Shown here: piece after piece, positions 3,120-57,560 of the stretch
How positions within the stretch are numbered: the first letter of the stretch is position 1
Layout of the letters: each line of letters begins with the position of its first letter
Assembly: GCA_017522765.1 (NCBI GenBank)
Contig: JAFWYG010000005.1
Span: 571,048 to 635,047, forward strand
From: Clostridia bacterium
Lineage (GTDB): Bacteria > Bacillota > Clostridia > TANB77 > UBA1234
Direction: 5' to 3'
Length of the DNA stretch: 64,000 nucleotides
The notes under the pieces: generated by a model
What the model saw: the letters and a program-made list of their open reading frames with translations, nothing else
Databases searched by the model: none
Told to the model about the DNA's origin: nothing
Translations under genes and position numbers: made by a program

Positions 3120-3722
3120 TTATTCGCCTGGCGATGTGATTACATTTACGTCTTTAACAACGAAATTAGCTTTTACTATTTGATCTGAACTTCCACCTTC
3201 TACTACGATACCATCAACTTTAAAGTTTAATTCGGCATCATTTTGAATGTCATAAATGAAGTTTATTACAGATACATATGAACCTGTGATATCGAAGCTT
3301 AATGTAGCATCCGCATCGTTTGGTGTCATTTTAAATTTAACTGCATTGTCATTAGCATAGTTTCCTACTCTAATCCATAAGTAATCTAATAAATATCTTT
3401 CAATTTTATTAGCTTCGGCTATATCTTCTTTTGATGCAGTTAATGCCAAAGTATCATATTCATTTTTCTTAGCTTCGTAATTTTTTTGCTCAAGTCTTAC
3501 ATTTTCAGCAGCTTCATCTAACTTAGTAGAATTTAAGCTGTTTAGTTGCTTCATATCATTGTCTAACTTTGTTCTGTTAGCTTTTAAATCTTCATATGAA
3601 ACAACATCCATCTTCAATTGGAACTTTTGAGTAACTAGTCCAAAATATCCTTTAGCAAAAGATGTGTAAGAACCATATGCACATATAACTATCGCTACTA
3701 ATAAGAGTAATTTCTTAATCAT
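3120..3722 (-). CDS. PilO-like pilus assembly protein
   Basis: N-terminal TM followed by a coiled-coil-rich periplasmic part. The start overlaps the stop of the PilM/N gene by 4 bp. Confidence 0.5.
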   Translation of the reverse strand: MIKKLLLLVAIVICAYGSYTSFAKGYFGLVTQKFQLKMDVVSYEDLKANRTKLDNDMKQLNSLNSTKLDEAAENVRLEQKNYEAKKNEYDTLALTASKEDIAEANKIERYLLDYLWIRVGNYANDNAVKFKMTPNDADATLSFDITGSYVSVINFIYDIQNDAELNFKVDGIVVEGGSSDQIVKANFVVKDVNVITSPGE

Positions 3723-5497
3723 GGCAAGACCCCACTAACTATAATTTTAATATTTCCATCTACACTTACTACTTCCATATCAACATCTACTAATGCTTTC
3801 TCAAGTTTAATTCTTGAAACTAAGAAACCAAGTTGAGCATATTGACCAGATTCAGCTCTTAATGAAACATCTCCAGTTTCTAAGACATTGATTGATGTCA
3901 CTTTAACACCTGCTGGCATAATAAACATCAATTTACTCATGAAGTTTGGAACGTTGTATGTCTTTCTAGATTCTTTATTAATCTTTGTAATTATTGCACT
4001 TAATTTTTCTGTGATTGCTACATATTCATCAGCACGACCTTTTAAATAAGTAGCATCTTCATCAGCTTTTGCTATTGCTGCATTTACTTTAGAAATTTCA
4101 GAATTTACTTCTTTATCTTTTGCAAGAATTCTGTTGTTTATCATCGTTCCTGCAACTATATATCCTATTAATAATGAAGCAACAAAAACTGTAGTCTTGG
4201 TAAGTATACTATCTATTCTTCCATATGATGTATCTGTGATTTCTCCATCGCCAGCCTCATCAAGCAAACTTTCGTCAAAATCAACATTTCTCTTTTTCTT
4301 CTTACTACCTATAGGAGCATTTAGCTTTTTGATAAAATCTCCAGCAGCCACCTTGGCATTTTTTATTCTACCTTTTATATCAAAAGCTTTGATTTTATCT
4401 GTTACTACTTTTGCACCTTGCAAATTCGCAGCTTTCTTTGAAGCAGCTATGAAGTTTAAGTCTTTATCACTCATACCTACACCATCAAGCGCAAGAGCGA
4501 TAGCACTGTTTACTTCAATGATTTCTTTCATATTTTCAGAATCTCTACCAGCGAAGAATGGTTTTAATATCTTACATGGTGTATCTAAAAATACTTCTCC
4601 GAAATACAAATCAATATTATTTATAACTGCACCAGCACCTGTTATATAGATAGCTTTTGCATCTTTTAAGTACGGTGTAACAATTGCATCAACTTGTTGA
4701 CGGATATCATATAACACAGGGATTACTACATCAAGAATATTTCTTGACTCATCATCCATATCATAAGAATCTTCAATATAAGCAGAAACTTTTTTCAAAG
4801 CTTCATACGCTTTTGATGCAGAATTATATTTTTCAGCAAGTTTACTGATTATTTCTTGTGTGCCAAGCGGAAGTGAAGTTACATATTGGATTTCACTTCT
4901 GTGGAAAACTGTAATTGTAGTTTTATCTTCTATATTAACTACTATGGCTTCTTCATCGATACCTTGATTTTCAAATAAGTTTTTAACACTGATTGAAAGT
5001 GGACATATCGAATCAACTTTATATTTTTCATAATTTCGTCTTATATTTGCAAGTTCACCAGTAGACGTCATAGCACATATTGCTAAGTGCTTATCGATTG
5101 ATCCACTATTTAACGCAAGCTTAACTCTCATTTCCATAACAGAACTTGATAATGCATTCTCACCCATTTTTTCTTGGTATTCAGAAAGAATAAGTTGATG
5201 CATATCTTTTTTCTTAAGATTAGCAAATACGTCTGTAATATAGAATTCTTCATTTGAAAGAGCTAAAGCTACAGAAGTAGCATTATTACTGCTTAATGTG
5301 ATTTGTCCAGGTGTTGCTGGAGCACTCATTCCTACTTCTTCAGCAATTTCATCAATTGTGGCTTGCAGATTGTCATAAAACTTGACACCATATGCATCTA
5401 ACGTAAGTATTTGCCCTGCAATCTTTTCAGTTACAGATGTTACTTTAGCGTATTTAATCATATTTCTGTCAGTGTAAATTCCTAAACAACTTGGCAT
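3719..5497 (-). CDS. PilM-PilN fusion protein (actin-like ATPase domain, then TM and PilN-like domain)
   Basis: The N-terminal half has an actin/FtsA-like PilM architecture. After residue 440 comes a TM (TTVFVASLLIGYIVAGTMI) and a PilN-like tail. Confidence 0.6.
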   Translation of the reverse strand: MPSCLGIYTDRNMIKYAKVTSVTEKIAGQILTLDAYGVKFYDNLQATIDEIAEEVGMSAPATPGQITLSSNNATSVALALSNEEFYITDVFANLKKKDMHQLILSEYQEKMGENALSSSVMEMRVKLALNSGSIDKHLAICAMTSTGELANIRRNYEKYKVDSICPLSISVKNLFENQGIDEEAIVVNIEDKTTITVFHRSEIQYVTSLPLGTQEIISKLAEKYNSASKAYEALKKVSAYIEDSYDMDDESRNILDVVIPVLYDIRQQVDAIVTPYLKDAKAIYITGAGAVINNIDLYFGEVFLDTPCKILKPFFAGRDSENMKEIIEVNSAIALALDGVGMSDKDLNFIAASKKAANLQGAKVVTDKIKAFDIKGRIKNAKVAAGDFIKKLNAPIGSKKKKRNVDFDESLLDEAGDGEITDTSYGRIDSILTKTTVFVASLLIGYIVAGTMINNRILAKDKEVNSEISKVNAAIAKADEDATYLKGRADEYVAITEKLSAIITKINKESRKTYNVPNFMSKLMFIMPAGVKVTSINVLETGDVSLRAESGQYAQLGFLVSRIKLEKALVDVDMEVVSVDGNIKIIVSGVLP

Positions 5498-6661: not shown

Positions 6662-6673
6662 TAATTCAAGCAT

Positions 6674-9600
6674 TTATTTAACTACAACTAATTTAACTTT
6701 TAGCTTTTCTCCATTGATATCTAATTCATTCTCGCCTTCGCCAGCTGTTACTAAATCAGCAAGTGTTTCATCAGCGATTTGTTCTTTATTTCTTTCAATT
6801 ATTTCAGCTAATTTTTCGTTATCTGAGTAATACATTTCGATATGATTTTGAACCTCGAATCCAGAATCTTTTCTTAAATTTTGGATCTTAGAAATTAATT
6901 CTCTTACAAAACCTTCTTCGATTAATTCATCTGTTAATTCAATATCAAGAACTACTGTTGTAGCACCTTCTTGAGATGAAATGTATTTTTCAGATTTAGT
7001 TGTTTCAATTAATAAATCTTCTTCTAACAATTCAACTTTTGCATTTCCGATTTCAAGTGTTACTTTACCTTCTGTCTTTAATTCTTTAACAAAAGCAGTA
7101 CCATCTCCACCGCGAAGCATTTGGTTGATTGAAGGAAGTATTGCACCATATTTTGGTCCAACAGTTTTTAAGTTAGGTTTAACATTGTATGAAACAAAAT
7201 CACTTACATCATCTTTGAATTCAATATCTTTAACATTTAATTCTTCTTTTATGATGTAGTAATATTTTTCATCTAAAGAACCTTCTGTTGCAACATAAGC
7301 TTTAGCAAGTACTTGTCTATTTTTCATGTTAGAAACATTTCTACAAGCTCTGCCTAAAGTTACGATTTCAAGAACTTTTTCCATGTTAACTTCTAATCTT
7401 GCATCAATCATACTTTCATCAGCAACCGGGAAGTCACATAAATGTATACTTTCAGGAGCTGTTTTATCAAAGTTTCTTACTAAGTTTTGATAAATCTTTT
7501 CAGTCATGAATGGTACAAATGGAGCTGTAACTTTTGCAAGAGTTACTAAAGTTGTGTATAGAGTCATATAAGCATTTATCTTATCTTGTTCCATACCACT
7601 ACCCCAGAATCTTTCTCTACATCTTCTTACATACCAGTTAGAAAGTTCATCAGTAAAGTCTTGAATTAATCTAGCGCTTTCAGTTATCTTGTATTCTGTC
7701 ATTCCAGCATCTACATCTTTGATTAATGTGTTTAATCTAGATAATACCCATTTATCCATTTGAGATAATTTATCGTATTCTAGTTTGTATTTTGTTGGAT
7801 CGAATTTATCGATGTCAGCATATAAAACATAGAATGCATAAGTATTCCAGAAAGTTCCGATGAATTTTCTTTGATACTCACTTATTCCCTCCGGATAGAA
7901 TCTAGTTGGAAGCCATGGAGATGAACTTGCACAGAAATACCATCTAACAGCATCTGCACCTTGTTTATCTAAAACAGTCCATGGATCAACTACATTACCT
8001 TTATGTTTAGACATCTTCAAACCATCTTTATCTTGAACGTGACCTAAAACTAAGCAGTTCTCAAATGGTGATTTATCAAATAGCAATGTAGATATAGCCA
8101 TAAGTGTATAGAACCAACCTCTAGTTTGGTCGATAGCTTCACTTATAAATTGTGCTGGGAAATGTTTTTCAAACAATTCTTTATTTTCAAATGGATAATG
8201 ATATTGAGCAAAAGGCATTGAACCTGAGTCAAACCAACAGTCAATAACTTCTGGAACTCTAGTCATCATCTTTCCACACTTAGGACATTTAATCTTAATT
8301 GGATCTAAGTATGGTTTGTGTAGTTCTACATTATCAGGAACATTATCTCCTAATTCTTTAAGTTCTTCTCTACTTCCAATTACATGATAGTGACCACACT
8401 CACATTCCCAAACAGGAAGTGGTGTACCCCAATATCTTGAACGAGAAAGACCCCAGTCAATAACATTTTCTAAGAAGTTACCAAAACGACCTTCTTTGAT
8501 ATTATCTGGCATCCAGTTAACAGTGTTGTTGTTAGCAACAAGTCTATCTCTTAATGCAGACATCTTAATAAACCATGTGTCGATAGCATAGTAAAGAAGT
8601 GGTGTGTCACATCTCCAGCAGAAAGGATATGAGTGCTCATAAGGAAGAGCAGCAAATAATAATCCTCTAGCTTTTAAATCTTCAAGAACAAGTTTGTCAG
8701 CATCTTTAACAAAAGTACCAGCCCACTCACCTGTTTCTTTTGTGAAGTTACCAGCTTCATCAACTAATTGTAAGAATGGTAAATCATTATCTTTACCAAC
8801 TCTAGCATCGTCTTCACCAAATGCTGGAGCAATGTGAACAACACCAGTACCATCAGTTAAAGTAACGTAACCATCTGCAACTACGAAATATGCTTTTTTA
8901 TCTAAGTTAGCAAAATCAAATAATGGTTCATATTCCATACCATATAAATCATTACCAACATATTTTTTAAGAACATCATAGCTTTCAGAAATTACGCTAT
9001 CAACTAACGCTTCTGCTAAGATATAAACATCTCCGCTTTCAACTTTAATTTCAACATATGTATCTTTAGGGCTAACGCAAAGTGCAACGTTAGAAGGTAA
9101 AGTCCATGGAGTAGTTGTCCATGCAAGAATGTATTTATTATCTTCGCCTTTAACTTTGAACTTAGCTATACAAGAAGTTTCCTTAACATCTTTATATCCT
9201 TGGGCAACCTCGTGTGAAGATAAAGAAGTACCACATCTTGGGCAGTAAGGAACAATCTTGTGTCCTTTGTATAATAAACCTTTATCATTGATAGTTTTAA
9301 GAGCCCACCATTCAGACTCGATATAATCATCATGGTAAGTAACATATGGATCATCCATATCAGCCCAGAAGCCAACACGATCACTCATAACTTCCCATTC
9401 GTGTTTATATTTCCAAACACTCTCTTTACATTGTTTAATGAAAGGTTCAACACCATATTTTTCGATTTGAGGTTTACCATCGATACCAAGCATCTTTTCA
9501 ACCTCAAGTTCAACTGGTAAACCGTGAGTATCCCAACCAGCTTTTCTAGGAACTTCATAACCTTTCATAGTCCAGAATCTTGGAACAACATCTTTGAAAA

Positions 9601-21267: not shown

Positions 21268-21367
21268 AACGTTTTCTCCTTTGTAACCCATATATAAAAA
21301 TTTTAACATTTTTGGCAATTTGTGTCAACGCATGTACCCAACCGAGGCAACGGCTTTCCATATAAAA

Positions 21368-21814: not shown

Positions 21815-22059
21815 TTTAATACCTCCGTGAGAGCTTTTCAGCTTTCGCTTACTCAGATGAGAGTTTTGTGAATCGCACTCTCTTGCGAAAATAATTGAGT
21901 TGTCTTCTTTAATTGAGAAGACCGTTAGACAGACATGTCATAACAGTATTATTATAGCATATTTTAGCCTCTTTTTCAAGTTTTTACCAATTTCATCCCA
22001 CAATGAGTTCGTCCCCCAGCGGGACAAAAAAAGACGCCGAATAGTCGGCGCCATTAAAA

Positions 22060-34864: not shown

Positions 34865-34983
34865 TAACTCGTCCAACCTCCATTGATAAATTGTATGAGG
34901 ACAAGTTAAATTTAGAACAACAGATTTGTCCTATCTTGGACAAAAAAAAGAGACATCCGAAGATGTCTCGTAAGTTTTTAAAC

Positions 34984-44327: not shown

Positions 44328-45431
44328 TTATTGTGCTCTCTTGTTTTTATTCTTTGCTTTCCAGAAAAGTCTCTTTATTCCAGTTAAAAACTTGGCCCAG
44401 TTTGTTTGCTCTTCTACATCAATTAAATATTTGACACCCGGCTCAACGCTAACAATTTCTTCTTTTTGATACACGCCTTTGCGAGCCGCATAAGTTTCTT
44501 CAGCTTCTGCTTGCATCACAGCATCTAATTCTTCAAGAAATTCCGCTACTGTTTTTTCACTAACATTTAGGTACTCTTGCATAAACGCCCAGTCTCCTTT
44601 TCCGTCTTTAATGTGTCTTGCTAATTTAAATAACTTCGTTTGCATATCTTCACCATAACTTGTACATTGTGAAAGCGCAACAGCAAACTTGTTTGCAAAC
44701 GCTGTTGAAAGTTCACCTGTATAAATTGTGTTGTCTATGTAATTAATTAATTTTTTAGTACCTGCTTCCAATAAAATTTCATTATCTTCAGAAACGTTAT
44801 AAATTTCAGCAAGTCCTGCAGAAATTTCTTTATGTCCAATTTCACCAGTTGTAGCTTTGCTCCAAATTGTTAAAAACATTGTTGCACATTTGTTTGGATC
44901 CTTAAAATGATTCTTTTTAACCGCGTGTGCCACAATCACTTCCGGACTCATGTTAAATACATTCTTTTCTTTCATATAATATATGAATGCATTTGAATAA
45001 TATACAGGTAAAAATTCTTTTAATAAAGTATATTCTCCATATTTTGATGCACCTTTTGCTTGCACACTCACCCAACGACGCATAAATTCATAAATCAAAT
45101 TATGAGCAGTATTAATTGTCCCATCAAAGTCAAACTTTGTTCTTTGTCTAATATATTCATTCAATAACGCACCTGATGAATCAATCTTAACAATAAATTC
45201 TTCTGTGAGATGATACACCATCGCGATATCTATTTTCATATCTGTACACGACACATCTATGTAACCATCGCGCACTTCGTCTTCGTAACGCATTAGTTTC
45301 AAAAAGATGTCCATGTTGTTTTGTACAAGTGAGTTATCTTTCAAAACTTGTACAGAACTTTTAATGTACTTCGCTATGGTCGCTTCACGTGCTGTTGCGA
45401 CATTTGTATTATCTGTACTTGTCTTTTGCAT
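44328..45431 (-). CDS. Hypothetical protein (367 aa)
   Basis: Long ORF with the terminator agagcacaataagtgctct+T6 downstream. No recognised motif. Confidence 0.5.
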   Translation of the reverse strand: MQKTSTDNTNVATAREATIAKYIKSSVQVLKDNSLVQNNMDIFLKLMRYEDEVRDGYIDVSCTDMKIDIAMVYHLTEEFIVKIDSSGALLNEYIRQRTKFDFDGTINTAHNLIYEFMRRWVSVQAKGASKYGEYTLLKEFLPVYYSNAFIYYMKEKNVFNMSPEVIVAHAVKKNHFKDPNKCATMFLTIWSKATTGEIGHKEISAGLAEIYNVSEDNEILLEAGTKKLINYIDNTIYTGELSTAFANKFAVALSQCTSYGEDMQTKLFKLARHIKDGKGDWAFMQEYLNVSEKTVAEFLEELDAVMQAEAEETYAARKGVYQKEEIVSVEPGVKYLIDVEEQTNWAKFLTGIKRLFWKAKNKNKRAQ

Positions 45432-45608
45432 AACTCCTCACTTTCTTCTTTAGTAAAAATAAATTTCCATATATAACTATTTTATCAATCTTAAAAATTT
45501 GTGCAATAGTTTTTTCGCTATTTATATTAGTAGAAATTTTAAAAAAATAAAATGGGGAAACCCCCGGGCATCTCAATTAAGAGAATGCTCCGAGGGTTTC
45601 AAAATTTG

Positions 45609-46148
45609 TTAGATGAATTCCAGATTCCATTCAGTGGAACGCAGCGCCTTGAATTCCTCTTCGCCACGCTCCGCCATCTTGTATCTGTCGAGGTCAATGG
45701 TTTTAAGCCAGTGAACATAGCACGCAAAGCGCTTCAGCTCGTAATAAGGGAGCCACAGCTTTGCTGCGACATTAAGAACAATGTCAACGGTTCTGCCGTT
45801 CTCATTGATGTGCAGTGCGGGAGATGCCTGCTTACCCAGGAATGTGTAGTTTACGGTTGCTCCGTATCTCTTGGGAATCGGGGCATTTTCATGCACGCAC
45901 AGCTGACGCATCAGATGAATCAGATAGTAAAGCGGAAGCTTGGTTTCGCCGTTGCTACCACCTTCGCTCACCACTTCGGTGATTTTCGCCGTTGTCGGCT
46001 CCATCTTGAAAAGAATCTCATAGGTGCACGTGCTCCCGTCCTTCTTCTCGATGATTTTGGTTGCTCGAACCATTTTTTCGTTTCCTACGTTTGCTTTTTC
46101 CATGTTGTCATTCCTCCCATGGTTGTTAATCTTCGACTTTGTACTCAC
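45609..46148 (-). CDS. Hypothetical protein, paralog A of a tandem pair (about 50% GC)
   Basis: Alignable to the upstream paralog (TYEILFKMEP / EYEYKIHFHINP; PLYYLIHLMRQL / RPYMLLHLLTRVY; IPKRYGA / GFPRKAEA). Overlaps its partner by 23 bp. Complex terminator at 45555-45600. Confidence 0.55.
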   Translation of the reverse strand: MSTKSKINNHGRNDNMEKANVGNEKMVRATKIIEKKDGSTCTYEILFKMEPTTAKITEVVSEGGSNGETKLPLYYLIHLMRQLCVHENAPIPKRYGATVNYTFLGKQASPALHINENGRTVDIVLNVAAKLWLPYYELKRFACYVHWLKTIDLDRYKMAERGEEEFKALRSTEWNLEFI

Positions 46149-46674
46149 ATGTCCACATCTCAGCGTGAACGGGATTCAGAGTATGATAAGGACTTCTTTC
46201 ACCCTCAGCACACATCAGCTCATAGGTGGGTTCATCATAGAACTGCAAGTTCTGAATGTATCTCACCATCTTGAGAATGTCCGGTGTGCTCATCCAGTCA
46301 CCATTCACCTGCTGATCCAGTCTGTAACGCTTGCCAGACTTAAAAATCTTCAGTGCAGGATGGTGCAGATATTTGCCCTTGGGGTGCTGCTTCGGATTCT
46401 TTACATACTGTGCTTCAGCTTTGCGCGGGAAACCGATCTGTACATTGGTTTCTTCGTAAACGCGTGTCAGCAGGTGCAGCAGCATGTACGGCCGAATCGA
46501 AATCTTGCCTTTCTCAGAGACAAAACGCGGCAGGCCGTTTTCCGGGTTGATGTGAAAATGGATCTTGTACTCATACTCTTTTCCAGAGTTCGACTTGAGC
46601 ATCGCCGTGGCGTACACATGCAAACGCTTCTTGTCTTTGTCGGGGTTGCCAACTTTTCCTACATCAGCTTTCAT
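46126..46674 (-). CDS. Hypothetical protein, paralog B of the tandem pair (about 50% GC)
   Basis: RBS GCAGGAGG. Preceded by promoter-operator element R1. Confidence 0.55.
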   Translation of the reverse strand: MKADVGKVGNPDKDKKRLHVYATAMLKSNSGKEYEYKIHFHINPENGLPRFVSEKGKISIRPYMLLHLLTRVYEETNVQIGFPRKAEAQYVKNPKQHPKGKYLHHPALKIFKSGKRYRLDQQVNGDWMSTPDILKMVRYIQNLQFYDEPTYELMCAEGERSPYHTLNPVHAEMWTCEYKVED

Positions 46675-46755
46675 TGATAAAATTCCTCCTGCATTAGCAG
46701 ATTAGTCAAGAGCTTGTTGCCTTGCTTAGGATATATACAAGTATTCTTGCCGAGG

Positions 46756-46862
46756 TCATTATATCACGACTTTTAAATTATGTAAAGTGTCCCATTTTGG
46801 GACGGACTCTTCGTGGGACAAGTTGTCCCATAATAGGTCCGTCCCAAAATGGGACAAAAACA
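46756..46862 (-). promoter_or_regulatory. Promoter-operator element R1: nested palindromes (GTCCCA-N4-TGGGAC, GGACGGAC, GGGACAA-C-TTGTCCC) immediately upstream of a -35 TTACAT / -10 TATAAT promoter
   Basis: The 19-nt perfect inverted repeat gtcccattttgggacggac / gtccgtcccaaaatgggac flanks the 15-nt palindrome gggacaacttgtccc. About 90% identical to R2 at 47814-47922. Confidence 0.6.
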
Positions 46863-46892
46863 CGAGCGCCACAATATGTGACGCTCGCTTCC

Positions 46893-47753
46893 TTAATATG
46901 TGATTTCGTTGTAGGGTTTGCCCCAGTTGTTTCTTACCCATTCGTTCAACTTCTCAACACCCGCCTCATCAGTGCCAAACTTTCTGCGCATCATGAGAGC
47001 CATATCATTGAAGCTCATATCTTCAGTGAACTTCTCCGGCAACGGCAACTCCCACTTAAGTCTCATATGCTCATAAACACTTCTAAGAGCACAGGAAAGT
47101 TCAAAGACATTCTTTGTCTTGATTCCCCATGCTTTAACAGGTACATCAGGTTTCTTGTTCTGCATTTCATGAAGGCCTGCAGCCACAAAAAGTTCTGTGA
47201 AATACGCCCAGTTCCGACTGTTTCCCCAGCACTCGATTGCGAAGAGATATCCCTCAGCTCTTTCATAAAGCTTCAGACTAAGACCAGATTCCTTATCTTC
47301 CAGAAAGTTTGCGATGTTAAGGAGCTGTTTAGAAACTTCAGACGGCTTCTTGCCCCAAGGCTTTTTAAGTGCCGTACACAACTCCGAAAAAACTGGCTGC
47401 GTGTCTTCCTTTTTGTTAGGAAAAATACTAATATGTGTTTCGTACCAATTCGGGCCACTGCGAGGATTACCATTAAAGGAAAACATCAGCCCACAGCGCT
47501 TCATGTTGATTGCCGCATTCAGCAGCTTACAAAGATTGTCCCGATCGCTTTTTAATGCGACATCAAGATATGCGAAGTGATGATCGCCAGCATCACAGCC
47601 AACAGTCTCAACACCTTTTTTGTGACAAAGCCACAGAAGTTCCTCCAGCATTTTATTACCTTCAGCCCATTCCGGGATAGCCACTTTAAGCTCAGCTTCA
47701 CTCAGCCCACCGATTGGAATCGATTTGCCGCAGTTCCACTTCGACCTATTCAT
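46893..47753 (-). CDS. Hypothetical protein (286 aa, about 48% GC) bracketed by R1 and R2
   Basis: RBS GGAGAAGGAGG before ATG (MNRSKW). The plus-strand ORF 46722..47555 is low-complexity antisense junk. Confidence 0.55.
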   Translation of the reverse strand: MNRSKWNCGKSIPIGGLSEAELKVAIPEWAEGNKMLEELLWLCHKKGVETVGCDAGDHHFAYLDVALKSDRDNLCKLLNAAINMKRCGLMFSFNGNPRSGPNWYETHISIFPNKKEDTQPVFSELCTALKKPWGKKPSEVSKQLLNIANFLEDKESGLSLKLYERAEGYLFAIECWGNSRNWAYFTELFVAAGLHEMQNKKPDVPVKAWGIKTKNVFELSCALRSVYEHMRLKWELPLPEKFTEDMSFNDMALMMRRKFGTDEAGVEKLNEWVRNNWGKPYNEITY

Positions 47754-47813
47754 AGAACGTTTCCTCCTTCTCCTATAGATGATTAGGATCTACAAATTTG
47801 TTTATTAAACAGG

Positions 47814-47922
47814 TGGATTATATCACGGCTTTTAATTTATGTAAAGTGTCCCAAAGGTGGACGGACTCTTCGTAGGACAATTTGTCCCGCAATGGGTCCG
47901 TCCCCTAGTGGGACAACAAAAA
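47814..47922 (-). promoter_or_regulatory. Promoter-operator element R2 (second copy of R1) driving the 46893..47753 gene
   Basis: Same palindrome architecture and the same -35/-10 (TTACAT ... GATATAAT). Followed upstream by the terminator gcgacttgagaaatcaagtcgc+T5 of the giant gene. Confidence 0.6.
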
Positions 47923-47951
47923 GCGACTTGATTTCTCAAGTCGCCTCTCTT

Positions 47952-50900
47952 TTACTCTTTAAACATATTTACGAATTCTTCTTCATTTATTTCGCCATGT
48001 TCTAACAAATATTCAACTACATTAGACATCTTATCTTTGTTATCTCTAATTAATTCTTTAACCTCTTCAAAACATTTTTTCAAGATTCTATTTTCTTCAT
48101 CATATATTGTTTTTTCCAATGCTGTATTATTTGAAGATACTTGTGCTAAACCTAAATCGGACATGCCGTATCTTGTAATCATGTTTCTAGCAACTCTTGT
48201 AGCATGCTCTAAATCAGAGGTTCCACCACTCTTATAGAATCCTAAGAACACTTCTTCAGCAGCAATACCTGCTAGCGATCTCTTTATCGAATTCATTAAT
48301 TCTTCTTTCGAATGAACGTAAGCCGCATTCGAATTGTCATACTCAACATATCCTAAAGCTCCCCAACCTTCTGCTTTACACGTAATCTTTTTGATACCAC
48401 ATCTCTTAACTAACAAGTATCCAACAGTTGCGTGACCAACTTCGTGAATCGCAGTCTTTCTCATTTCTTCTGGAGTAATCTTACTTGGATCAGCCATAGA
48501 TGCTCCGTCAAGCATTGAATTTGTAATCTCTTGTATTGTTGGAATATCTTCTGCTGTTATCGTTGTTACATCAGTTGGTGATGCAGTACCACTCTTAGAT
48601 TTTTCTGCAAAATTCTTAGAATGATTAACCATTGTCTTTGAAAATACTTTATCTGCAAATCTACCATTGCCAATGTTATCAACCTTGTAGAAATACTTCA
48701 TAACTTCTTTTACTTTTTCTATCGCACCATCGCTTAAAGTTAATCCACTCTTTTCAACTTTTCTTCTAAATATTTCTGTAAGTTCAGAATCAGAATAATC
48801 TTCAAAGTTAAATGTGTAACCAATTCTAGATGCAATACCAGGATTTATATCCAAGAAGTCTCTCATCTCTTTTTTGTATCCAGCAAAAATTACTACAAAC
48901 TCACCTTTATGATCTTCCATTGCTTTGATTAAAGTTGCAACAGCTTCTGCACCATAATCATGTCCCGGACCACCATGACCATTTGCAAGTGAGTATGCTT
49001 CATCTACGAATAATACGCCTCCCATTGCACGTTCTACAACTTCATTTGTTTTAATTGCAGTTTGTCCAACATATGCAGCAACTAAATCTTTTCTTTCAAC
49101 TTCTACAAGTTTATTCTCATGGATAACTCCCATATCAAATAACATCTTTGCAATGATTCTTGCTACAGTTGTTTTACCTGTACCTGGATTTCCAGTGAAT
49201 ATCATATGCAGATTTGAATCAGGAAGATTTATATTTTGTTTTTCCGCCTCTTTAATAAACGATACATATGTGCCTAAAGAAATTATTTCTTTCTTCAAAC
49301 TTTCCATACCAACAATCTTAGCTAAAGCTTCTTCAACATTTGCACTAGTACTAATTCCGCTTTCAGTAAGCTCTTCAATAGTTGGAATGTCTGCTTCAGT
49401 TATAAGTTCTATATTTTCTCTATCGGCCAAAGCATGTTTCATCAAAGTTTTTTGAATTACTTTATCAACGAAACGACCATTACCAAAGTTCTTTCTCTTA
49501 ACGAAATAATCACAAACTCTTTTTAATGGAACATCAATATCGTCAGCAAATTTAAAACCTGCTTTCTTCATCTTCATATAGAACATTTCCATTAATTCTT
49601 TTACGTTATAATCTTCGAAGTTAAATGTATAACCAATTCTAGATGCAATACCAGGATTTACATCGAGGAATGTTTTCATCTCATCTCTGTAACCTGCAAA
49701 GATTACTATCAAACTTTCTTTATGATCTTCCATCGCTTTAATCAATGTTGCAATAGCTTCAGCACCAAGTTTATCAGATGCAAGTGTGTATGCTTCGTCA
49801 ATAAATAGTACACCGCCCATTGCATGTTCTATTATCTCATTAGTTTTAATAGCAGTTTCTCCACCATGAGTACCAATTAAATCTTTTCTTTCAACTTCAA
49901 CAAGTTTATTCTCATGGATAACTTCCATATCAAATAGCATCTTCGAAATAATTCTAGCGATTGTAGTTTTACCAGTACCCGGATTACCTGTGAATATCAT
50001 ATGCATATTTGTGCTAGGAATGTTTAGTTTCTTTTGTTCTGCTTTCTTAACAAATTTAGCATACTTACCAAAAGTCCTAATTTCATTCTTCACATTTTCC
50101 ATACCGATAATCTTTTCAAGCATCTCTTCAGCAGTTTCATGCTTACCATTTTTAGACTCGTTTTGATTTAATTGTTCAATGCTTGGAATGTCTTTCTCAG
50201 TAATCATCTTCAAGTCTTCAGAATCACCCAAAGCATGATTCATCAAAGTTTCTTGAATTACTTTATCTACAAAACGACCATTACCAAAACTCTTTCTCTT
50301 CGAATAATAGCTAAAGATTCTCTTAAGTGGAACGTAAACATCATCACCACATTCAAAACCATTTTTTCTAATCTTCACACGGAAGATTTCGATCAATTCT
50401 TCAACTGTATAATCAGGGAAATCAAAAGTATAACCTATTCTAGAAGCTATACCAGGATTGATATCCAAGAAGTCTTTCATCTCTTTTTGATATCCTGCAA
50501 AAATAACAACTAGCTTATCTTTGTGATCTTCCATTGCTTTAATTAAAGTTGCAATAGCTTCACTACCAAAGTCGTTTTTACTTTCACTTGCTAAAGTGTA
50601 TGCTTCATCAACGAATAACACACCACCCATAGCTTTATCTATAACTTCAGTTGTTTTTGTTGCAGTTTGTCCAATATATTCTGCAACTAAATCTTTTCTC
50701 TCAACTTCAACAAGTTTATTTTCTTTTACAACACCAAGATCAAAAAGCATCTTCGCCATAATCCTTGCAACAGTTGTCTTACCAGTACCAGGATTACCTG
50801 TGAATATCATATGCATATTTGAAGAAGCTACTTTCAAACCATTTGCTTTGGCTTGCAATTGGAAGAACATATACTTTTCAAACTCTTTAACTTTTTCTTT

Positions 50901-53774
50901 TACACTATCTAGACCAATGATGTTATCCAAAGATTCTTTCTTATATATGTTTGGTGGGAACACCAATTCATTTCTTGAATTTGCGTAGTTAGCAAGATAA
51001 TTAACAATCTCCGGCTTACTAAATGGCATGAACTTTTGATTCAAGCTCACATACTCATTAAATTGTTTTTTATATTCCTCTTCTGTCTCTCTAAGCTTCG
51101 CAGACAAATCCGGATTCAATATTTTCTTGTAACTTACAAACATATCATCTAAAGAATATGTTGGAATATTAATTATATTATTTTGATAAACGAATTTAAG
51201 TCTTGCATCAAGATCCAAGAAAGATTCAATTTCATCAGGCGTTGCATTGATAATTACATAACCTTTAGAAGTAATATTTGCAAGCACGTCAATAGCATGT
51301 TTTATCATCTTCTTATCAAGATAATTTTTGTTGTAAAAATAGAAATCAGAAACAAATTCGCTAATAGAATCAAGCACATAAATCGCATTTGCTTCTAAAT
51401 TGTTTCTTCTATTAACTGTATATCCACCTCTGTATTTGATGTTGTTATTATCTTTTTTGAAACTTGGTTTTTCCTCTATTTCCAAATCATAATAAACTAA
51501 CTTTTCATCTTTATTGATTCTTAAATCAGTAGTGTGATAATAAAGTTTTGCAAAATGAGATGCCGGAATTTTTCTTACATTATCAATTTGATTTTGATTC
51601 TTAATAAGTTCAATAATCTTATCAATAAAGTTATTCTTTGCAGTCTCATCTTCACCAGCAACAATGCAGTGGAAATTAGTTTTACTACTTTCCATGATGC
51701 TGTTAATTGTCACATTCAGATTCTCAATCTTACCATCATAAGAACCTTTTAAATCTTGAAGTTTTTCTTCTTTCTTTGCATTTAACTCATCAATTTTTTC
51801 TTGTATAAAAGTATTTCTCTTAGCATCAATCTCATCTTTGTGAGCAGCATAAAACTCTCTATCTTCTTGTATCTTATGCTCTTGACCAGACTTAGTTAAA
51901 TACAAAATATATGCAGCAACAACAATTGCACAATAAGGCATTCTACAACTATATGAACCGCACAAATCATCAACTTCAACATTTGGTTTTCTATCTAAAG
52001 CTTTTGCTTTTTCCCAACTTTCTATCGGATTAATTTTATTAATATCAAAATCCGAAAATTGTGAATCAGCACAAGAGAAAAGTTCATCAAAATTCATGTA
52101 ACCATCTTTATCTAAAGATCTGCGAATTCTTATCATGTTTCTTTTTACAATTTCTTGTGCAAAATCAAAAGCTTTATCACTTACATTTTTCAAACCATTC
52201 TTTGTATTCCATTTAAAAGTAAAGAATCCATTATCATCTTTATTTACGTTTTTATATTTTTCTCTTGCAGAAAGCTTATCTCTCAAAAGATTTTTATTCT
52301 TCAAATACAATATGTATGCAGCCAAACGTTTTGGACAAGATTGATACTTACAAGTAAAACAAGAATCAGTACGAAAGAACTTTCCAGTACCAACTTTCCA
52401 AGTTCCACCTTTTACATTCACTCTGAAATTTTTATCTGCATTAGCTTTTTCAAGGAACTCATCATCAGTTTCATCACGATCACAAAAACCATATAATTTA
52501 GAACCAATTGCAACCGTATTATTTTCAAAAGCTAAACTAAGACTACCACGTTCAATTATATTTAGCGCAACTTCAATAGACTTATCATTTGCAGCATTTA
52601 AAAAGTCATCTTCGTCCCAATCAAAATCATAAGCTTTATTTTCAGAATTTCCAGCCTCAATTCGCGCAACAATTTGATCATAATTTAATGCAGGTGCTTC
52701 TGATTTTGGTGTAGACACTTCTTGTTCTGATTTAACTGGTGGTTCTAGTTTTGGTTTTTCAGCCAAGTGTACCGTCTTGTCCGCTGGCGGCGGCACAACC
52801 TTCTTTGCATTCTCATCTCTAAATTTAGGAGGTATCGCACCTTTAACATTCTCCATCTTAGGAGGTGTAGGATTTTTTATCGGTTCCTCTAGTTTAATGT
52901 GTTCTTCAACTTTAATTGGTTCGTCGATTTTAATTGGATCATCAAGTTTAATTGGTTCTTCAATCTTTATCGGATCTTCTACCTTGATTGGATCTTCGAT
53001 TTTTATTGGTTCCTCTACCTTAACCGTTTCTTCTTTCTTAATTGGTTCAACCGGAACCACTGGCTCTACCAAGGTTATTGGAGATATATCATCAACGATA
53101 GGTTCATCAACTTTTATAGGTTCGATGGGTTTTACTTGAGGAACTTCATCCTCCTCAGTTAAAACATTAAGCGTAATCGGTTCATCCTTTACCAACGGTA
53201 CAAAATCTGAAGGCAAATCAGAAAGTTTAATCGAAGTAGAATCTTCTTCTTTTTTTGTTGCTTCAGCCTTCGGCTCCATTCTCTTAGGAGCAGGTTTGGC
53301 CTTAAGCTTTGTCACATACTCATCAACCAATTTCTCGTATAATCTATATGCATCTTTATATTCATCCGTTCCATTTGCATATCTTTTAATACTGCTCGCA
53401 ATATAAAAAATCTCAACAAAAGAAACTATATCATCAAAATTATTTTCAAACTTTAACTCGTCAACAGTTTTAATAATTGCTGTGTTTTTCTCTTCATCAG
53501 ACAAAGCTTCAAATCTCAACATTCTAGCATTGTCTTCAAGCAAAGAAATAATATTTCCTATGTGCGAAGCATTAACTCCATCCTCAGAAAAATACATAGG
53601 AAAACGCGCAACAATCTTTTTATTATCAACTTCAAAAGCTCGATTCGCATCATCAGGACAAGCTATAAAATATTTTTTCGTTTCTTCATCAGGTATTCCA
53701 TAACCGATTAAATATTTATTTAACAGTATCTCTAAAACCGAAACACCATCGTTGAAACCAGTTTCCTTATCCAT
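47952..53774 (-). CDS. Giant (1940 aa) multidomain protein: N-terminal domain, EPIK proline/glutamate repeats, Cys-rich duplicated modules, three tandem SpoVK/CbbX-type AAA+ ATPase modules and a C-terminal FtsH-type M41 zinc metallopeptidase domain; no TM segment
   Basis: Walker A three times (MIFTGNPGTGKTT[VI]ARI) and Walker B three times (GGVLF[VI]DEAY[TS]LA). HEVGHATVGYLL...GGTSDLEHATRVARNMITRYGMSD is the M41 HExxH plus helical bundle. The AAYILYL Cys-flanked motif is duplicated. Strong RBS AGGGGGA. Confidence 0.8.
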   Translation of the reverse strand: MDKETGFNDGVSVLEILLNKYLIGYGIPDEETKKYFIACPDDANRAFEVDNKKIVARFPMYFSEDGVNASHIGNIISLLEDNARMLRFEALSDEEKNTAIIKTVDELKFENNFDDIVSFVEIFYIASSIKRYANGTDEYKDAYRLYEKLVDEYVTKLKAKPAPKRMEPKAEATKKEEDSTSIKLSDLPSDFVPLVKDEPITLNVLTEEDEVPQVKPIEPIKVDEPIVDDISPITLVEPVVPVEPIKKEETVKVEEPIKIEDPIKVEDPIKIEEPIKLDDPIKIDEPIKVEEHIKLEEPIKNPTPPKMENVKGAIPPKFRDENAKKVVPPPADKTVHLAEKPKLEPPVKSEQEVSTPKSEAPALNYDQIVARIEAGNSENKAYDFDWDEDDFLNAANDKSIEVALNIIERGSLSLAFENNTVAIGSKLYGFCDRDETDDEFLEKANADKNFRVNVKGGTWKVGTGKFFRTDSCFTCKYQSCPKRLAAYILYLKNKNLLRDKLSAREKYKNVNKDDNGFFTFKWNTKNGLKNVSDKAFDFAQEIVKRNMIRIRRSLDKDGYMNFDELFSCADSQFSDFDINKINPIESWEKAKALDRKPNVEVDDLCGSYSCRMPYCAIVVAAYILYLTKSGQEHKIQEDREFYAAHKDEIDAKRNTFIQEKIDELNAKKEEKLQDLKGSYDGKIENLNVTINSIMESSKTNFHCIVAGEDETAKNNFIDKIIELIKNQNQIDNVRKIPASHFAKLYYHTTDLRINKDEKLVYYDLEIEEKPSFKKDNNNIKYRGGYTVNRRNNLEANAIYVLDSISEFVSDFYFYNKNYLDKKMIKHAIDVLANITSKGYVIINATPDEIESFLDLDARLKFVYQNNIINIPTYSLDDMFVSYKKILNPDLSAKLRETEEEYKKQFNEYVSLNQKFMPFSKPEIVNYLANYANSRNELVFPPNIYKKESLDNIIGLDSVKEKVKEFEKYMFFQLQAKANGLKVASSNMHMIFTGNPGTGKTTVARIMAKMLFDLGVVKENKLVEVERKDLVAEYIGQTATKTTEVIDKAMGGVLFVDEAYTLASESKNDFGSEAIATLIKAMEDHKDKLVVIFAGYQKEMKDFLDINPGIASRIGYTFDFPDYTVEELIEIFRVKIRKNGFECGDDVYVPLKRIFSYYSKRKSFGNGRFVDKVIQETLMNHALGDSEDLKMITEKDIPSIEQLNQNESKNGKHETAEEMLEKIIGMENVKNEIRTFGKYAKFVKKAEQKKLNIPSTNMHMIFTGNPGTGKTTIARIISKMLFDMEVIHENKLVEVERKDLIGTHGGETAIKTNEIIEHAMGGVLFIDEAYTLASDKLGAEAIATLIKAMEDHKESLIVIFAGYRDEMKTFLDVNPGIASRIGYTFNFEDYNVKELMEMFYMKMKKAGFKFADDIDVPLKRVCDYFVKRKNFGNGRFVDKVIQKTLMKHALADRENIELITEADIPTIEELTESGISTSANVEEALAKIVGMESLKKEIISLGTYVSFIKEAEKQNINLPDSNLHMIFTGNPGTGKTTVARIIAKMLFDMGVIHENKLVEVERKDLVAAYVGQTAIKTNEVVERAMGGVLFVDEAYSLANGHGGPGHDYGAEAVATLIKAMEDHKGEFVVIFAGYKKEMRDFLDINPGIASRIGYTFNFEDYSDSELTEIFRRKVEKSGLTLSDGAIEKVKEVMKYFYKVDNIGNGRFADKVFSKTMVNHSKNFAEKSKSGTASPTDVTTITAEDIPTIQEITNSMLDGASMADPSKITPEEMRKTAIHEVGHATVGYLLVKRCGIKKITCKAEGWGALGYVEYDNSNAAYVHSKEELMNSIKRSLAGIAAEEVFLGFYKSGGTSDLEHATRVARNMITRYGMSDLGLAQVSSNNTALEKTIYDEENRILKKCFEEVKELIRDNKDKMSNVVEYLLEHGEINEEEFVNMFKE

Positions 53775-53914: not shown

Positions 53915-54679
53915 CTATTTAGTTGCAACAATTCCATAAAGTACGCGTTTCAAAAGTATCCCCTTATCAGATTTGAACCTTCTCACATACTCATCAAACA
54001 AATCTTTTTCAATCATAGCTTTGTGTTCAAAATCAGAATTATCAAACTCAGAAAAATCATCCAAAATTGGAGCCTTCAAAAGTAGTGCCATCAAATCATC
54101 TTCCGTTTCATAATACTCATCTTCCAAAATCTCAACACGTTCAATTTTAGAAAAACCAGCATCAACTAAATCTTGGTAGTCCTTCTCAGCAATAGAAATA
54201 GGATCATTAAAAGCTTGACCTCTACCAAAAAGTTCTTTCATCTCCCAACAATCTTTTTGATCAACACCTTCAATCACAAGCACGCCACCAGGCACAAGAG
54301 CATCATAAATCTGCTTAGCATGAATAACAGTGTGACGCGCAGAGATAAGATCAAAAGAATTGTTGGGCACCTTCATATTTAAATTGTCCATTTGAGCAAA
54401 CTTAACACGCTTGCCAGGATGCTTCTTCAAATTTTCATTAGCAGTCTTAATCATCTCACTAGAAAAATCCGTAGCAGTAACCATCCCAACTTCCGGATAA
54501 AACTCAAGCACCTTCTCTCCACCACCAGTGCCAAGATCAAGGCAATTAGAAGTCGCGTTAGTATGAGCACGTATCACATCATAAAACTCCCAATCAGTAT
54601 GTCTCACAGTCACACACTTGATGTCATCAAAATTCCAATTGCCAATTCTTTCGTAATAATCAAATTCATTTACTTGCAT
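53915..54679 (-). CDS. Class I SAM-dependent methyltransferase
   Basis: LDLGTGGGEKVLEF (motif I) and an acidic motif II/III spacing. RBS AAGGAGAG before the internal ATG (MQVNEF). Terminator downstream. Confidence 0.7.
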   Translation of the reverse strand: MQVNEFDYYERIGNWNFDDIKCVTVRHTDWEFYDVIRAHTNATSNCLDLGTGGGEKVLEFYPEVGMVTATDFSSEMIKTANENLKKHPGKRVKFAQMDNLNMKVPNNSFDLISARHTVIHAKQIYDALVPGGVLVIEGVDQKDCWEMKELFGRGQAFNDPISIAEKDYQDLVDAGFSKIERVEILEDEYYETEDDLMALLLKAPILDDFSEFDNSDFEHKAMIEKDLFDEYVRRFKSDKGILLKRVLYGIVATK

Positions 54680-54957
54680 AAAAATCTCTCCTTCATTCTT
54701 AGCAGCTTGTAACTTTAGATTTATTTTATCACAAGCTACACTCTCTTTAAATTTGGTTGTAAGTATAAAAAAAGAACCTCCCTTCACAAACAGCAAAAAC
54801 AACCATAATTTTGCTATGGTTAAAATTTTTGCCATTCATAAAGAAAGATTCTCAACATTCTTTATTATAATTTCTCCGGTAACATCACGCGAATGGACGA
54901 ATTGAGATGTTACGAATAGATTATAGCATGGATTTGTCAGTAAATCAATGTTTTAAA

Positions 54958-55784: not shown

Positions 55785-57560
55785 TTATAACAGCTTTCCA
55801 ATAAGTATGTCAAATTTTTTTATTGTTTCTTCATCATATAGAAACTCTTTTTTTTCTATTTTTTTCAGTACAGCTAAAGAATAGTATTTTTTTTCACCTT
55901 CATAATCTTTATTATTAATCCCAATTTCATTTCTATCTCTGTCTGAAAACAATGATTCTATGGTAATACTTTGTTCTTCTTTTGGAAGTCGTTCTGCATC
56001 TACAAATATAATATCATTTTCTTGTACTAAAAGTTTTTTTACCAGAACCTTATATTCATTCCTACCATCTCTATCCTGATCCAACAGAACTTTATATTTA
56101 TACCCCCACCCCATTAATATAGAAACTAAATTGTGAATGTTCGAAACTCCTGATGATGGAATTATATTACAGGTATCCTCGATTCCTTTTTGTATAAAAT
56201 ATGCTTTTAAATAATTAAAATCCGAAATTCCTTCTGTAATAATATTATTTTTTTCTGTACTCATTGCTGAAAAACTATACCCCATTTTCATTCCTATAGC
56301 TTCAAGAATTGGAGTAATAGTCTCTTGTTTTCCTGCCATAGAATGCGGCAAAGAATGGTATGCATTACTTATATTACTATTTTCATTTTCATCTTTTATT
56401 ATGGTTCTAACTCTATCTAAATGTTCTTGATATATCATAGAAGGATGTTGGGTTGTATATATTATTTGATTGTTTTTAGATACAAAATTTTCAAATAATT
56501 CTAGTATCATTTTTTGTGCATTAACATGTAAAAACACACCTGGTTCATCTAGCAAAACAACAAAATTTTCCAAATTTGTTTTTTGAGTTTGCGCAAGCAA
56601 CTGAATATAAAAGCTCAAATACCATTTCAGTCCATTACTTCTTTCGCTTAAATTCAGATATTTCTTGTTCGTTTTCACAAGAAAATTTATATATTCATTA
56701 TTAAAATTCATTCTTAATTCAACATTATCTTGTTTATAAAATTGATTAAATCCTTCCATAAATTTTTGAATTTTTTTATTGATTTCTTCCTGAAAATTAT
56801 ATTTATCGCCATCACAAGATAAAATCCAAAATCTTTTTACCTCATCCTTTTCAACACCTATTACTTTCAAAAAACTAGTCAACACATCATCATGCTTTCC
56901 GTTATCTAACACACTGTTTTTCGTATATTTTGATTCTAATTCTACATTTTTTAAAAATATAAAACGTGGTAATAAAGAATATATTGTTTTTATACGTTTA
57001 ATAAACTCTTCAAAAGTTTTTAAAAATTCTGAATATTTACTATTTCTACTCAAATTTTTAATCATAGTATCCATCATAACTGAATATACAAAAACTTTAT
57101 TCTCTATATTTTTAATATTTTCAATCATTTTATTCATAGTAATGTTATGACTCGGTTCACTAAAAGTAATTCCTTTAGATAGGTTTATCAATTCATTTTT
57201 ATAAAATTGTATATTATTATTTTTGCTTATTATTTCAGATAATCCACCTTCAAATTCAACAGCGCCATTTCCTTTTATTGTAAATTTTGTTTCTTTTTCC
57301 GAAAGATAAATTTCCTTTTCTTTTTCATAAGGGAATGCAATCATTGAAATTACAATTTCATCGTTTATATAATTTTTATTTTTGTCTTCATCATTTAAAT
57401 TTGAAAATCCATCAAAATTCAATTTACTAATAGCGTTAAGAAAATTACTTTTACCAGATTCATTTTTACCAACAATTGTTGTAATTTCTCCCAAATCCAT
57501 TCTATTATTTTCTTCTCCAAAAGACTTAAAATTTTTTATTTTTATAGATGTTATTTTCAT
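55785..57560 (-). CDS. OLD-family nuclease (N-terminal ABC-type ATPase plus C-terminal TOPRIM), class-1 architecture
   Basis: Walker A GKNESGKSN, signature-like LSERSNGLK, Walker B VVLLDEPGVFLH, and H-loop TTQHP. TOPRIM IITEGISD and LLDQDRDG. Confidence 0.8.
   Translation of the reverse strand: MKITSIKIKNFKSFGEENNRMDLGEITTIVGKNESGKSNFLNAISKLNFDGFSNLNDEDKNKNYINDEIVISMIAFPYEKEKEIYLSEKETKFTIKGNGAVEFEGGLSEIISKNNNIQFYKNELINLSKGITFSEPSHNITMNKMIENIKNIENKVFVYSVMMDTMIKNLSRNSKYSEFLKTFEEFIKRIKTIYSLLPRFIFLKNVELESKYTKNSVLDNGKHDDVLTSFLKVIGVEKDEVKRFWILSCDGDKYNFQEEINKKIQKFMEGFNQFYKQDNVELRMNFNNEYINFLVKTNKKYLNLSERSNGLKWYLSFYIQLLAQTQKTNLENFVVLLDEPGVFLHVNAQKMILELFENFVSKNNQIIYTTQHPSMIYQEHLDRVRTIIKDENENSNISNAYHSLPHSMAGKQETITPILEAIGMKMGYSFSAMSTEKNNIITEGISDFNYLKAYFIQKGIEDTCNIIPSSGVSNIHNLVSILMGWGYKYKVLLDQDRDGRNEYKVLVKKLLVQENDIIFVDAERLPKEEQSITIESLFSDRDRNEIGINNKDYEGEKKYYSLAVLKKIEKKEFLYDEETIKKFDILIGKLL

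Follow-up and report, generated by a model that had tools for sequence, protein, structure and literature searches.

The closest described relatives of the element studied here are the repetitive extragenic palindromic (REP) systems, namely the REP sequences and bacterial interspersed mosaic elements (BIMEs) of Escherichia coli with the transposase TnpA-REP, and the REP doublets forming hairpins (REPINs) of Pseudomonas fluorescens, together with the REP-associated tyrosine transposases (RAYTs) (Bertels and Rainey, 2011, PMC3116915; Bertels et al., 2017, PMC5581495). In these systems short palindromic units outside genes occur either singly or in inverted pairs that form long hairpins, the doublets are heterodimers of two unit subtypes, units flank a Y1/HUH transposase gene that is kept at one chromosomal locus across species, and unit populations decay where the transposase is missing. 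These features recur in the family to which we assign two repeats, R1 (46756–46862) and R2 (47814–47922), in a window of 64,000 nucleotides from an uncultured Clostridia bacterium (contig JAFWYG010000005.1, assembly GCA_017522765.1). A sequence-only reading had taken the two repeats for a duplicated promoter-operator element bound by a multimeric regulator. We conclude that R1 and R2 are, in all likelihood, copies of a dispersed, transposase-associated REP/REPIN-like repeat located upstream of two ordinary strong promoters.

The family differs from the described REP/REPIN-RAYT systems in several respects. Its host is an uncultured low-GC clostridial (Eubacteriales) lineage, its unit has a 5-bp stem and a GTCC tail with no GTAG tag, its transposase is about 240 aa long with a C-terminal helix-turn-helix (HTH), and its units often lie right after terminator T-runs. 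In the part of one survey that bears on Clostridia, only Group 1 RAYTs are reported, with low counts of flanking repeats (PMC5581495). Our own literature search for RAYTs in Clostridia returned nothing specific.

The unit also resembles the CGTC-tagged REPs (Di Nocera et al., 2013), which form a short hairpin with a loop of 4–5 nt, predominantly as head-to-head dimers and commonly as heterodimers. Read on its reverse strand, the unit is (GA)GTCCGTCCC, which contains CGTC. The tail beside the hairpin is GGAC/GTCC, and CGTC occurs only within GTCCGTCCC. In the portions of that work describing their structure and distribution, CGTC REPs have stems of 8–9 bp that start with A/T pairs and a CCA tail, and are given as not found in Firmicutes and as having no associated transposase (PMC3733652). 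In contrast, the stem here consists of five G/C-rich pairs and a RAYT-like gene is associated with the units.

Two further likenesses concern small palindromic repeats next to promoters. Correia elements of Neisseria and the promoter early stem-loop (PeSL) cassettes of T4-type phages are small palindromic repeats that lie at, or come with, promoter elements, between adjacent cassettes of a variable region. Here, however, the promoter is outside the dispersed repeat and the other copies are without TTTACA-17-TATAAT; neither TA target duplications nor a phage context is present. The PeSL-type explanation was dropped because the window is a chromosome: it is low in G+C (0.33) and encodes IleRS, GluRS, RNase J and ABC proteins. 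BLASTN of 45500–48000 against phage and plasmid collections gave no match, nor did 1–25000 against phages.

Promoter and palindrome in R1 and R2

A repeat search of the window recovered R1 and R2 as an ungapped direct repeat (46758–46860 and 47817–47919) with 84% identity. A 105-bp duplication thus exists, but the identity of about 90% ascribed to it by the sequence-only reading was too high, since gapped alignment of R1 with R2 gives 90/109, or 83%. In that alignment the promoter part is identical at 27 of 29 positions and the palindrome at 58 of 71. On the minus strand both copies are arranged alike: the upstream gene ends in an intrinsic terminator with a T-run, which is followed by a palindromic module of about 70 nt and, three bases on, by a promoter. 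Loci of related genomes, taken as 8 kb around search matches and amounting to about 100 kb of related sequence, are designated by L numbers in what follows. On the minus strand, the terminator of a gene for a 1940-aa AAA+/peptidase-M41 protein (47923–47945, hairpin GGCGACTTGAGAAATCAAGTCGC, then TTTTTGTTG; shared with L001 and L032) has a T-run that abuts R2, and the terminator of the gene for a 286-aa protein (46863–46888, a 12-bp stem, then GTTTTTGTCC; shared with L001, L006 and L032) has one that abuts R1. The possibility that the module is itself a terminator was rejected, as no T-run follows its hairpin and the true terminator precedes it.

The predicted promoter of the 286-aa gene (47817–47845, minus strand) combines a -35 box TTTACA (47845–47840), a 17-nt spacer and a TG-extended -10 box TATAAT (47822–47817). 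That of an operon of two genes for 182-aa and 164-aa proteins (46758–46786, minus strand) is built in the same way (-35 TTTACA 46786–46781, 17-nt spacer, TG-extended -10 TATAAT 46763–46758), and each agrees with the consensus at 11 of 12 positions plus the TG. These two TTTACA-17-TGnTATAAT sites are the best promoter-like sites within 45400–48100. The promoters and the -10 box given earlier therefore stand, with the -35 box moved by one base from TTACAT to the better TTTACA; so does the division into two minus-strand transcription units, each with its own predicted promoter right after the terminator of the upstream gene.

The R1 module (46787–46857) is an inverted doublet of units at 46787–46821 (+) and 46823–46857 (-), with an nhmmer E-value of 8.4e-23. 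Its 19-nt arms are perfect, GTCCCATTTTGGGACGGAC at 46789–46807 and its complement at 46837–46855, and enclose the 15-nt palindrome GGGACAAGTTGTCCC at 46815–46829. The R2 module (47846–47916) is likewise an inverted doublet, with units at 47846–47880 (+) and 47882–47916 (-) and an E-value of 4.5e-22 with the hidden Markov model (HMM) of the element, but it is degenerate. The perfect 19-nt inverted repeat and the 15-nt central palindrome that had been attributed to each copy are thus present in R1 only; in R2 the arms are complementary at about 14 of 19 positions and the central palindrome has one mismatch. The GTCCC/GGGAC half-sites far exceed chance, with six matches to GTCCC-N5-GGGAC in the window against 0.08 expected. 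As single-stranded DNA (ssDNA), R1 folds with -30.9 kcal/mol (z = -11.7) and R2 with -20.1 kcal/mol (z = -5.2); as RNA, R1 reaches -50.6 kcal/mol. Both sequences are identical across four independent metagenome assemblies of the window species. We consider each 105-bp copy very probably a composite of two unrelated parts, a strong 29-bp promoter of housekeeping type and a 71-bp REPIN-like element.

Comparison with related loci separates these two parts. L001 (GCA_054275015.1) and L006 carry the same genes at about 86–87% DNA identity and keep the terminators, promoter cores and 5′ untranslated regions (5′UTRs) of both units, with unrelated A/T-rich sequence in place of the palindromes between terminator and -35 box. 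The promoter core of the 182-aa gene, CACTTTACATAA..CGTGATATAATGACCTCGG, is common to L001, L006 and L032; for the 286-aa gene, L032 has an identical core, and in L001 TTTACA-17-TATAAT encloses another spacer sequence and is without the palindrome. The element HMM had no match at the orthologous promoters of L001 and L006. As these promoters exist without the palindromes, the module is probably a lineage-specific addition upstream of pre-existing promoters. The orthologs in L032, which belongs to the metagenome-assembled genome (MAG) CAYMVI01, lie at 3695–3765 (R2) and 4747–4816 (R1, degenerate). At another site, aligned between L037 and the window, a promoter persists though the doublet has been cut to a remnant. 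Judged from these alignments, the predicted promoters are independent of the palindromic module.

The two -35/-10 spacers of the window (TAAATTAAAAGCCGTGA and TAATTTAAAAGTCGTGA) are closer to each other than to the orthologous spacers, which read CAAGCGAAATTGCGTGA for the 286-aa promoter in L001 and TAACACAAAAACCGTGA, TAACGCAAAAACCGTGA and TAACTAAAAAACCGTGA for the 182-aa promoter in L032, L001 and L006, respectively. Part of the likeness between R1 and R2 would follow from both promoters being near consensus in all relatives, and the block of doublet, -35 box and spacer was probably copied or gene-converted between the two sites.

A dispersed unit family and a RAYT-like transposase

HMM searches resolved the module into a head-to-head doublet of a 35-nt unit, TTGTCCC-N5-GGGACGGAC-N7-GGGACAA. 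In an exact-pattern scan that covered 185,579 species genomes, modules with palindromic double matches were found in one organism only, MAG CAYMVI01, an 'uncultured Eubacteriales bacterium' with a G+C content of about 0.34 that is 86–90% identical to the window over syntenic blocks; the remaining matches were single and lay in high-GC coding DNA. CAYMVI01 has modules at five places and in six copies (L010, L017, L018, L032 and L037, the R1 orthologue being added by nhmmer). Those at L010, L017, L018 and L037 occupy four unrelated intergenic sites in both orientations, with genes for a small membrane protein, a YibE/F-like membrane protein, a ruvA-like protein and an aldehyde-dehydrogenase-like protein downstream, and at these four sites the module ends 7 to 27 nt from the next -35 box. 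Over the family as a whole this distance is 3, 3, 7, 11, 18 or 27 nt.

HMM and regular-expression searches brought the family to 34 units at 12 loci in at least five genomes, arranged as singlets, one direct doublet, eight inverted doublets, and arrays. In CAYMVI01 at least six doublets, along with singlets, fall within 40 kb, which is a biased sample. Five units are held by the window: two in R1, two in R2, and a degenerate singlet at 21993–22027. All inspected copies are intergenic, and transcription is certain for some singlets: one separates a stop codon from the following ribosome-binding site (RBS), one is found 13 nt before an RBS, and one inside the 5′UTR of a HIT-family gene. Of two pattern scans of metagenomes, one gave no match and the other three true singlets and two chance matches; three patterns run on viral contigs gave either no match or one high-GC chance match, and a literature search on the motif strings returned only unrelated primer matches. 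Integron attC sites and CRISPR repeats were rejected as identities of the repeat, there being no integrase or cas gene nearby and the copies being scattered.

By inspection, units almost always start right after a terminator T-run, with the hairpin end beside it. Such junctions are seen in the window at 46858–46862, 47917–47922 and 22028–22035, and in relatives at L010 1260–1268, L018 6480–6489, L037 5068–5077, L050 3675–3686, L052 3830–3838 and L002 7815–7822. The transposase may prefer such targets, or units may be tolerated nowhere else. Because the elements thus come to lie between one gene's terminator and the promoter that follows, R1 and R2 abut -35 boxes.

Each doublet folds into one long hairpin, in which an internal loop separates a stem of about 20–22 bp from a 6-bp apical stem; the folding energies are -20 to -38 kcal/mol as ssDNA (z = -5 to -12) and -42 to -51 kcal/mol as RNA. 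In an alignment of eight doublets, 92% of cells pair under the long-hairpin model. The N5 segments are the sole variable paired positions, and their arms match within each copy (ATTTT, AGAGG, AGTTG, GGAGG). They contain all five of the double-change pairs, and the observed covariation score was reached in none of 500 shuffles. Such arm-to-arm matching would be needed by a hairpin-forming REPIN, and not by an operator that binds a dimer. The N7 segments are unpaired and of two subtypes, TCTTCGY and TCAAAGT, so that the doublets are heterodimers with a fixed internal loop.

The transposase gene was found in L037, which is syntenic with window positions 27087–20065. There, the terminator of the GluRS gene is followed by two direct units, an open reading frame (ORF) of 238 aa, an inverted unit, a gene for a small membrane protein, and a doublet. 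Pfam assigns the protein of this ORF (L037:5255–5971) to Y1_Tnp with 37 bits against a cut-off of 23, and the whole NCBIfam profile NF047646, 'REP-associated tyrosine transposase', aligns to it (E = 1e-19). It has the motifs HUH (NHAHFL) and AYIHFNPVKAG. A profile of 29 homologs had a sole match among all PDB sequences, 4ER8, the E. coli TnpA-REP (E = 2e-4), in an alignment where both the HUH and the YIxxNPVKxG motifs coincide. The last 40 residues of the protein resemble HTH domains, and one homolog has been named RayT by the Joint Genome Institute (JGI). Orthologs in other species are 71, 68 and 65% identical, and the locus is shared: the order RNase J, VCA0040-like, GluRS, transposase, 139-aa gene and Aldedh-like gene was seen in three confirmed species at 65–99% identity, the L054 sequence being too short to confirm it. 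The gene, apparently single-copy, is flanked by units in L037, L050, L052 and L054; in L050 at least five direct units lie upstream and an inverted unit follows the stop codon. A unit-flanked transposase is the REPtron arrangement in those parts of the literature that describe REP/RAYT systems. The sequence-only reading had itself set copies tied to transposase genes against its operator, and in these relatives units do flank a RAYT-like Y1 gene.

More distant homologs were also seen. The one in L057, 46% identical, has perfect inverted repeats of 23 nt, AAAGGGACGGTTCTTTTTTCCAT, on its flanks at 2641–2663, 2917–2939 and 3766–3788. These have a GGGACGG core in common with the window unit, which hints that this core is what this Y1 clade recognises. 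In L056 (2697–3985) a homolog with 48% identity is inserted between gidB and parA/parB; the 50–90-nt repeats at that locus were rejected as REPs, since they contain four parS sites (TGTTTCACGTGAAACA) of the parAB locus.

The window holds no Y1 gene by tblastn over its 64 kb. Where relatives carry the transposase, it has a degenerate single unit right after the GluRS terminator (21993–22027, minus strand; unit HMM E = 4.7e-9, aligned with L037), directly followed by the sequence that in L037 comes after the 3′ flanking unit; the transposase gene is therefore gone from the conserved locus. A protein search returned no transposase ortholog between 71% and 99% identity from a collection that includes assemblies of the window species, which suggests that this species lost the gene. 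Doublets have been eroded as well. At 21333–21350 (minus strand), where L037 has a full inverted doublet (6663–6733), the window retains the remnant TTGCCTCGGTTGGGTACA, exactly what would remain of a doublet once the stretch separating its first GGGAC from its last was removed; at 34926–34943 (minus strand), after a terminator, it retains TTGTCCAAGATAGGACAA, where L010 has a full inverted doublet (1267–1337). Filled sites thus face remnant or different sequence both ways, in L010 and L037 versus the window and in the window versus L001 and L006. No clean empty site was found among the compared loci, and the window sites resemble deletions.

Weighing the explanations of R1 and R2

If the palindromes were a dedicated operator, a multimeric transcription factor on the GTCCC/GGGAC half-sites would co-regulate the two units of the island. 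Such a site would suit three 15-bp palindromes that are spaced 26 bp centre to centre and end 3 nt from the -35 box in both copies, half-site pentamers that are invariant with spacers that vary, and an arm that faces the promoter alike in R1, R2 and the L032 orthologs. However, the N5 'spacers' change together in both arms, as those of a hairpin would, the module and its half occur at unrelated loci with variable distance and orientation, including inside operons and 5′UTRs, the orthologous promoters in L001 and L006 are without the module, and units flank a transposase gene. We regard a dedicated operator as very unlikely. The multimeric regulator, co-regulation and regulon of the sequence-only reading found no support, the site being unconserved at orthologous promoters and lying 3–27 nt from the -35 box in both orientations; its remark that no regulator gene is obvious in the island was borne out, as searches of Pfam, PHROGs, NCBIfam and PADLOC revealed no DNA-binding domain among the products of the island genes or of the genes beside them. 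A classical miniature inverted-repeat transposable element (MITE), the non-autonomous derivative of an insertion sequence with a DDE transposase, would likewise be short, have terminal inverted repeats (here TTGTCCC...GGGACAA), be scattered between genes and differ in presence between relatives. Yet no inspected copy has a target-site duplication, the 35-nt half is found alone, as direct doublets and in arrays, unlike MITEs, and the units are associated with no transposase but a Y1/HUH enzyme whose locus is fixed, so that this origin is extremely improbable.

A REP-like origin may also have been followed by acquisition of a host function at R1 and R2, which could serve as insulators or blocks to read-through, stabilise the 3′ end of the upstream mRNA, or modulate the promoters through the HTH of a Y1 protein or a nucleoid protein. 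In E. coli, REP elements affect mRNA stability and bind IHF and gyrase, and these effects favour co-option here, as do the RNA fold of -42 to -51 kcal/mol directly after a terminator, the C-terminal HTH of the Y1 protein family, the still perfect palindrome of R1, and the identity of both copies in four assemblies. That identity may, however, reflect one strain; R2 and the L032 orthologs are decaying, and relatives keep the same genes and the same predicted promoters without the module. We hold co-option to be unlikely. That REPIN-like doublets are genome-wide insulators or modulators between terminators and promoters, bound double-stranded by a RAYT-like HTH or another host protein, with R1 and R2 retained for control of the acquired three-gene module, appears quite unlikely.

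Considering all the above results, it is most likely that the palindromes of R1 and R2 are selfish DNA or relics and do not serve as a dedicated regulatory site. If the family behaves like the proteobacterial REP/REPIN-RAYT systems, the Y1 enzyme would recognise the hairpin in single-stranded DNA and spread the units, with terminator T-runs as a preferred or tolerated insertion target. R1 and R2 would now probably be immobile relics, and any effect on the two promoters may be incidental, through replacement of the A/T-rich upstream DNA, a cruciform, or a stable RNA hairpin that blocks or marks read-through.

Several points weigh against a REP/REPIN-like repeat. With NF047646 the score of 70.7 bits falls short of 80, the equivalog cut-off. 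The unit bears neither of the tags, GTAG and CGTC, that mark the described REP superfamilies, and it has a stem of only 5 bp. The covariation comes from eight doublets, two pairs of which are orthologous, and the copy number from about 100 kb sampled around matches. The presence/absence differences could all be losses, and transposition is deduced by analogy. R1 has remained a perfect palindrome despite the apparent loss of the transposase, which could mean selection for function at the promoter, and the arm beside the -35 box is the same one in R1, R2 and both of their L032 orthologs, the four copies that adjoin promoters.

With the plausible regulatory reading corrected, the R1/R2 palindromes should not serve as the basis for a regulon. 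The family would add a REP/REPIN-like repeat with a RAYT-like transposase to an uncultured low-GC Firmicute lineage in which such systems are barely described, and it is unusual in its non-GTAG unit, HTH-extended transposase and marked preference for the terminator T-run. One species with the transposase and intact doublets, and a sister without the transposase and with eroding copies, form a useful pair for the study of REPIN decay and for asking whether some copies, for example R1, persist because they serve the host.

Genes and neighbourhood of the two transcription units

The 286-aa gene (46893–47753, minus strand; G+C 0.445) has no assigned function. The operon at 45609–46674 (minus strand) comprises the 182-aa gene (46126–46674) and the 164-aa gene (45609–46103), and a terminator-like hairpin at 45557–45600 (minus strand), predicted from the sequence, closes the three-gene module. 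None of the three proteins has a match in Pfam, PHROGs, NCBIfam or PADLOC. The 182-aa and 164-aa proteins had been called paralogs, for which their similarity is weak (22% identity, E = 0.003), and the high G+C content noted for the island genes was confirmed (0.445–0.487 against 0.328 for the window). Homologs are few, 12 for the 286-aa protein and three for the 182-aa protein, and the AlphaFold2 (AF2) model of the latter is poor (pLDDT 59). The 5′UTR of the 182-aa gene (46675–46757, minus strand) is identical at 80 of 80 positions in L001 and at 78–79 of 81–83 in L006 and L032, which exceeds the overall identity of about 86–87% of those loci; its predicted RNA fold is unremarkable (z = -1.4). 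Rfam gave nothing at the gathering threshold and only sub-threshold miRNA-like hairpin matches on the palindromes, and no tRNAs were found.

The three-gene module lies in a variable neighbourhood, with a 1940-aa triple-AAA+/M41 protein and an OLD-family nuclease on one side and nucleotide kinases on the other. Homology with L006 and L032 stops at window position 45547, where the BLASTN blocks end; the module therefore borders another indel hotspot. Directly after the module, a gene for a YitT-family membrane protein is present in L006 (2251–2947) and in CAYMVI01 (L032 6127–6717), and absent from the window and L001. The 1940-aa protein (47952–53774, minus strand) has three AAA+ modules and a C-terminal FtsH-type peptidase M41 domain; its gene contains internal DNA repeats of about 1.2 kb, and its PADLOC matches (IetA, TRIP13) are to the AAA modules only. 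The protein is kept in all relatives (1935–1972 aa), always beside the variable cassette region. An OLD-family ATPase-TOPRIM nuclease at 55785–57560 (minus strand; PADLOC Old, E = 8e-27; Pfam AAA_15 and OLD-like_TOPRIM) is adjoined by a methyltransferase at 53915–54835, and these two genes suggest a defence-island neighbourhood.

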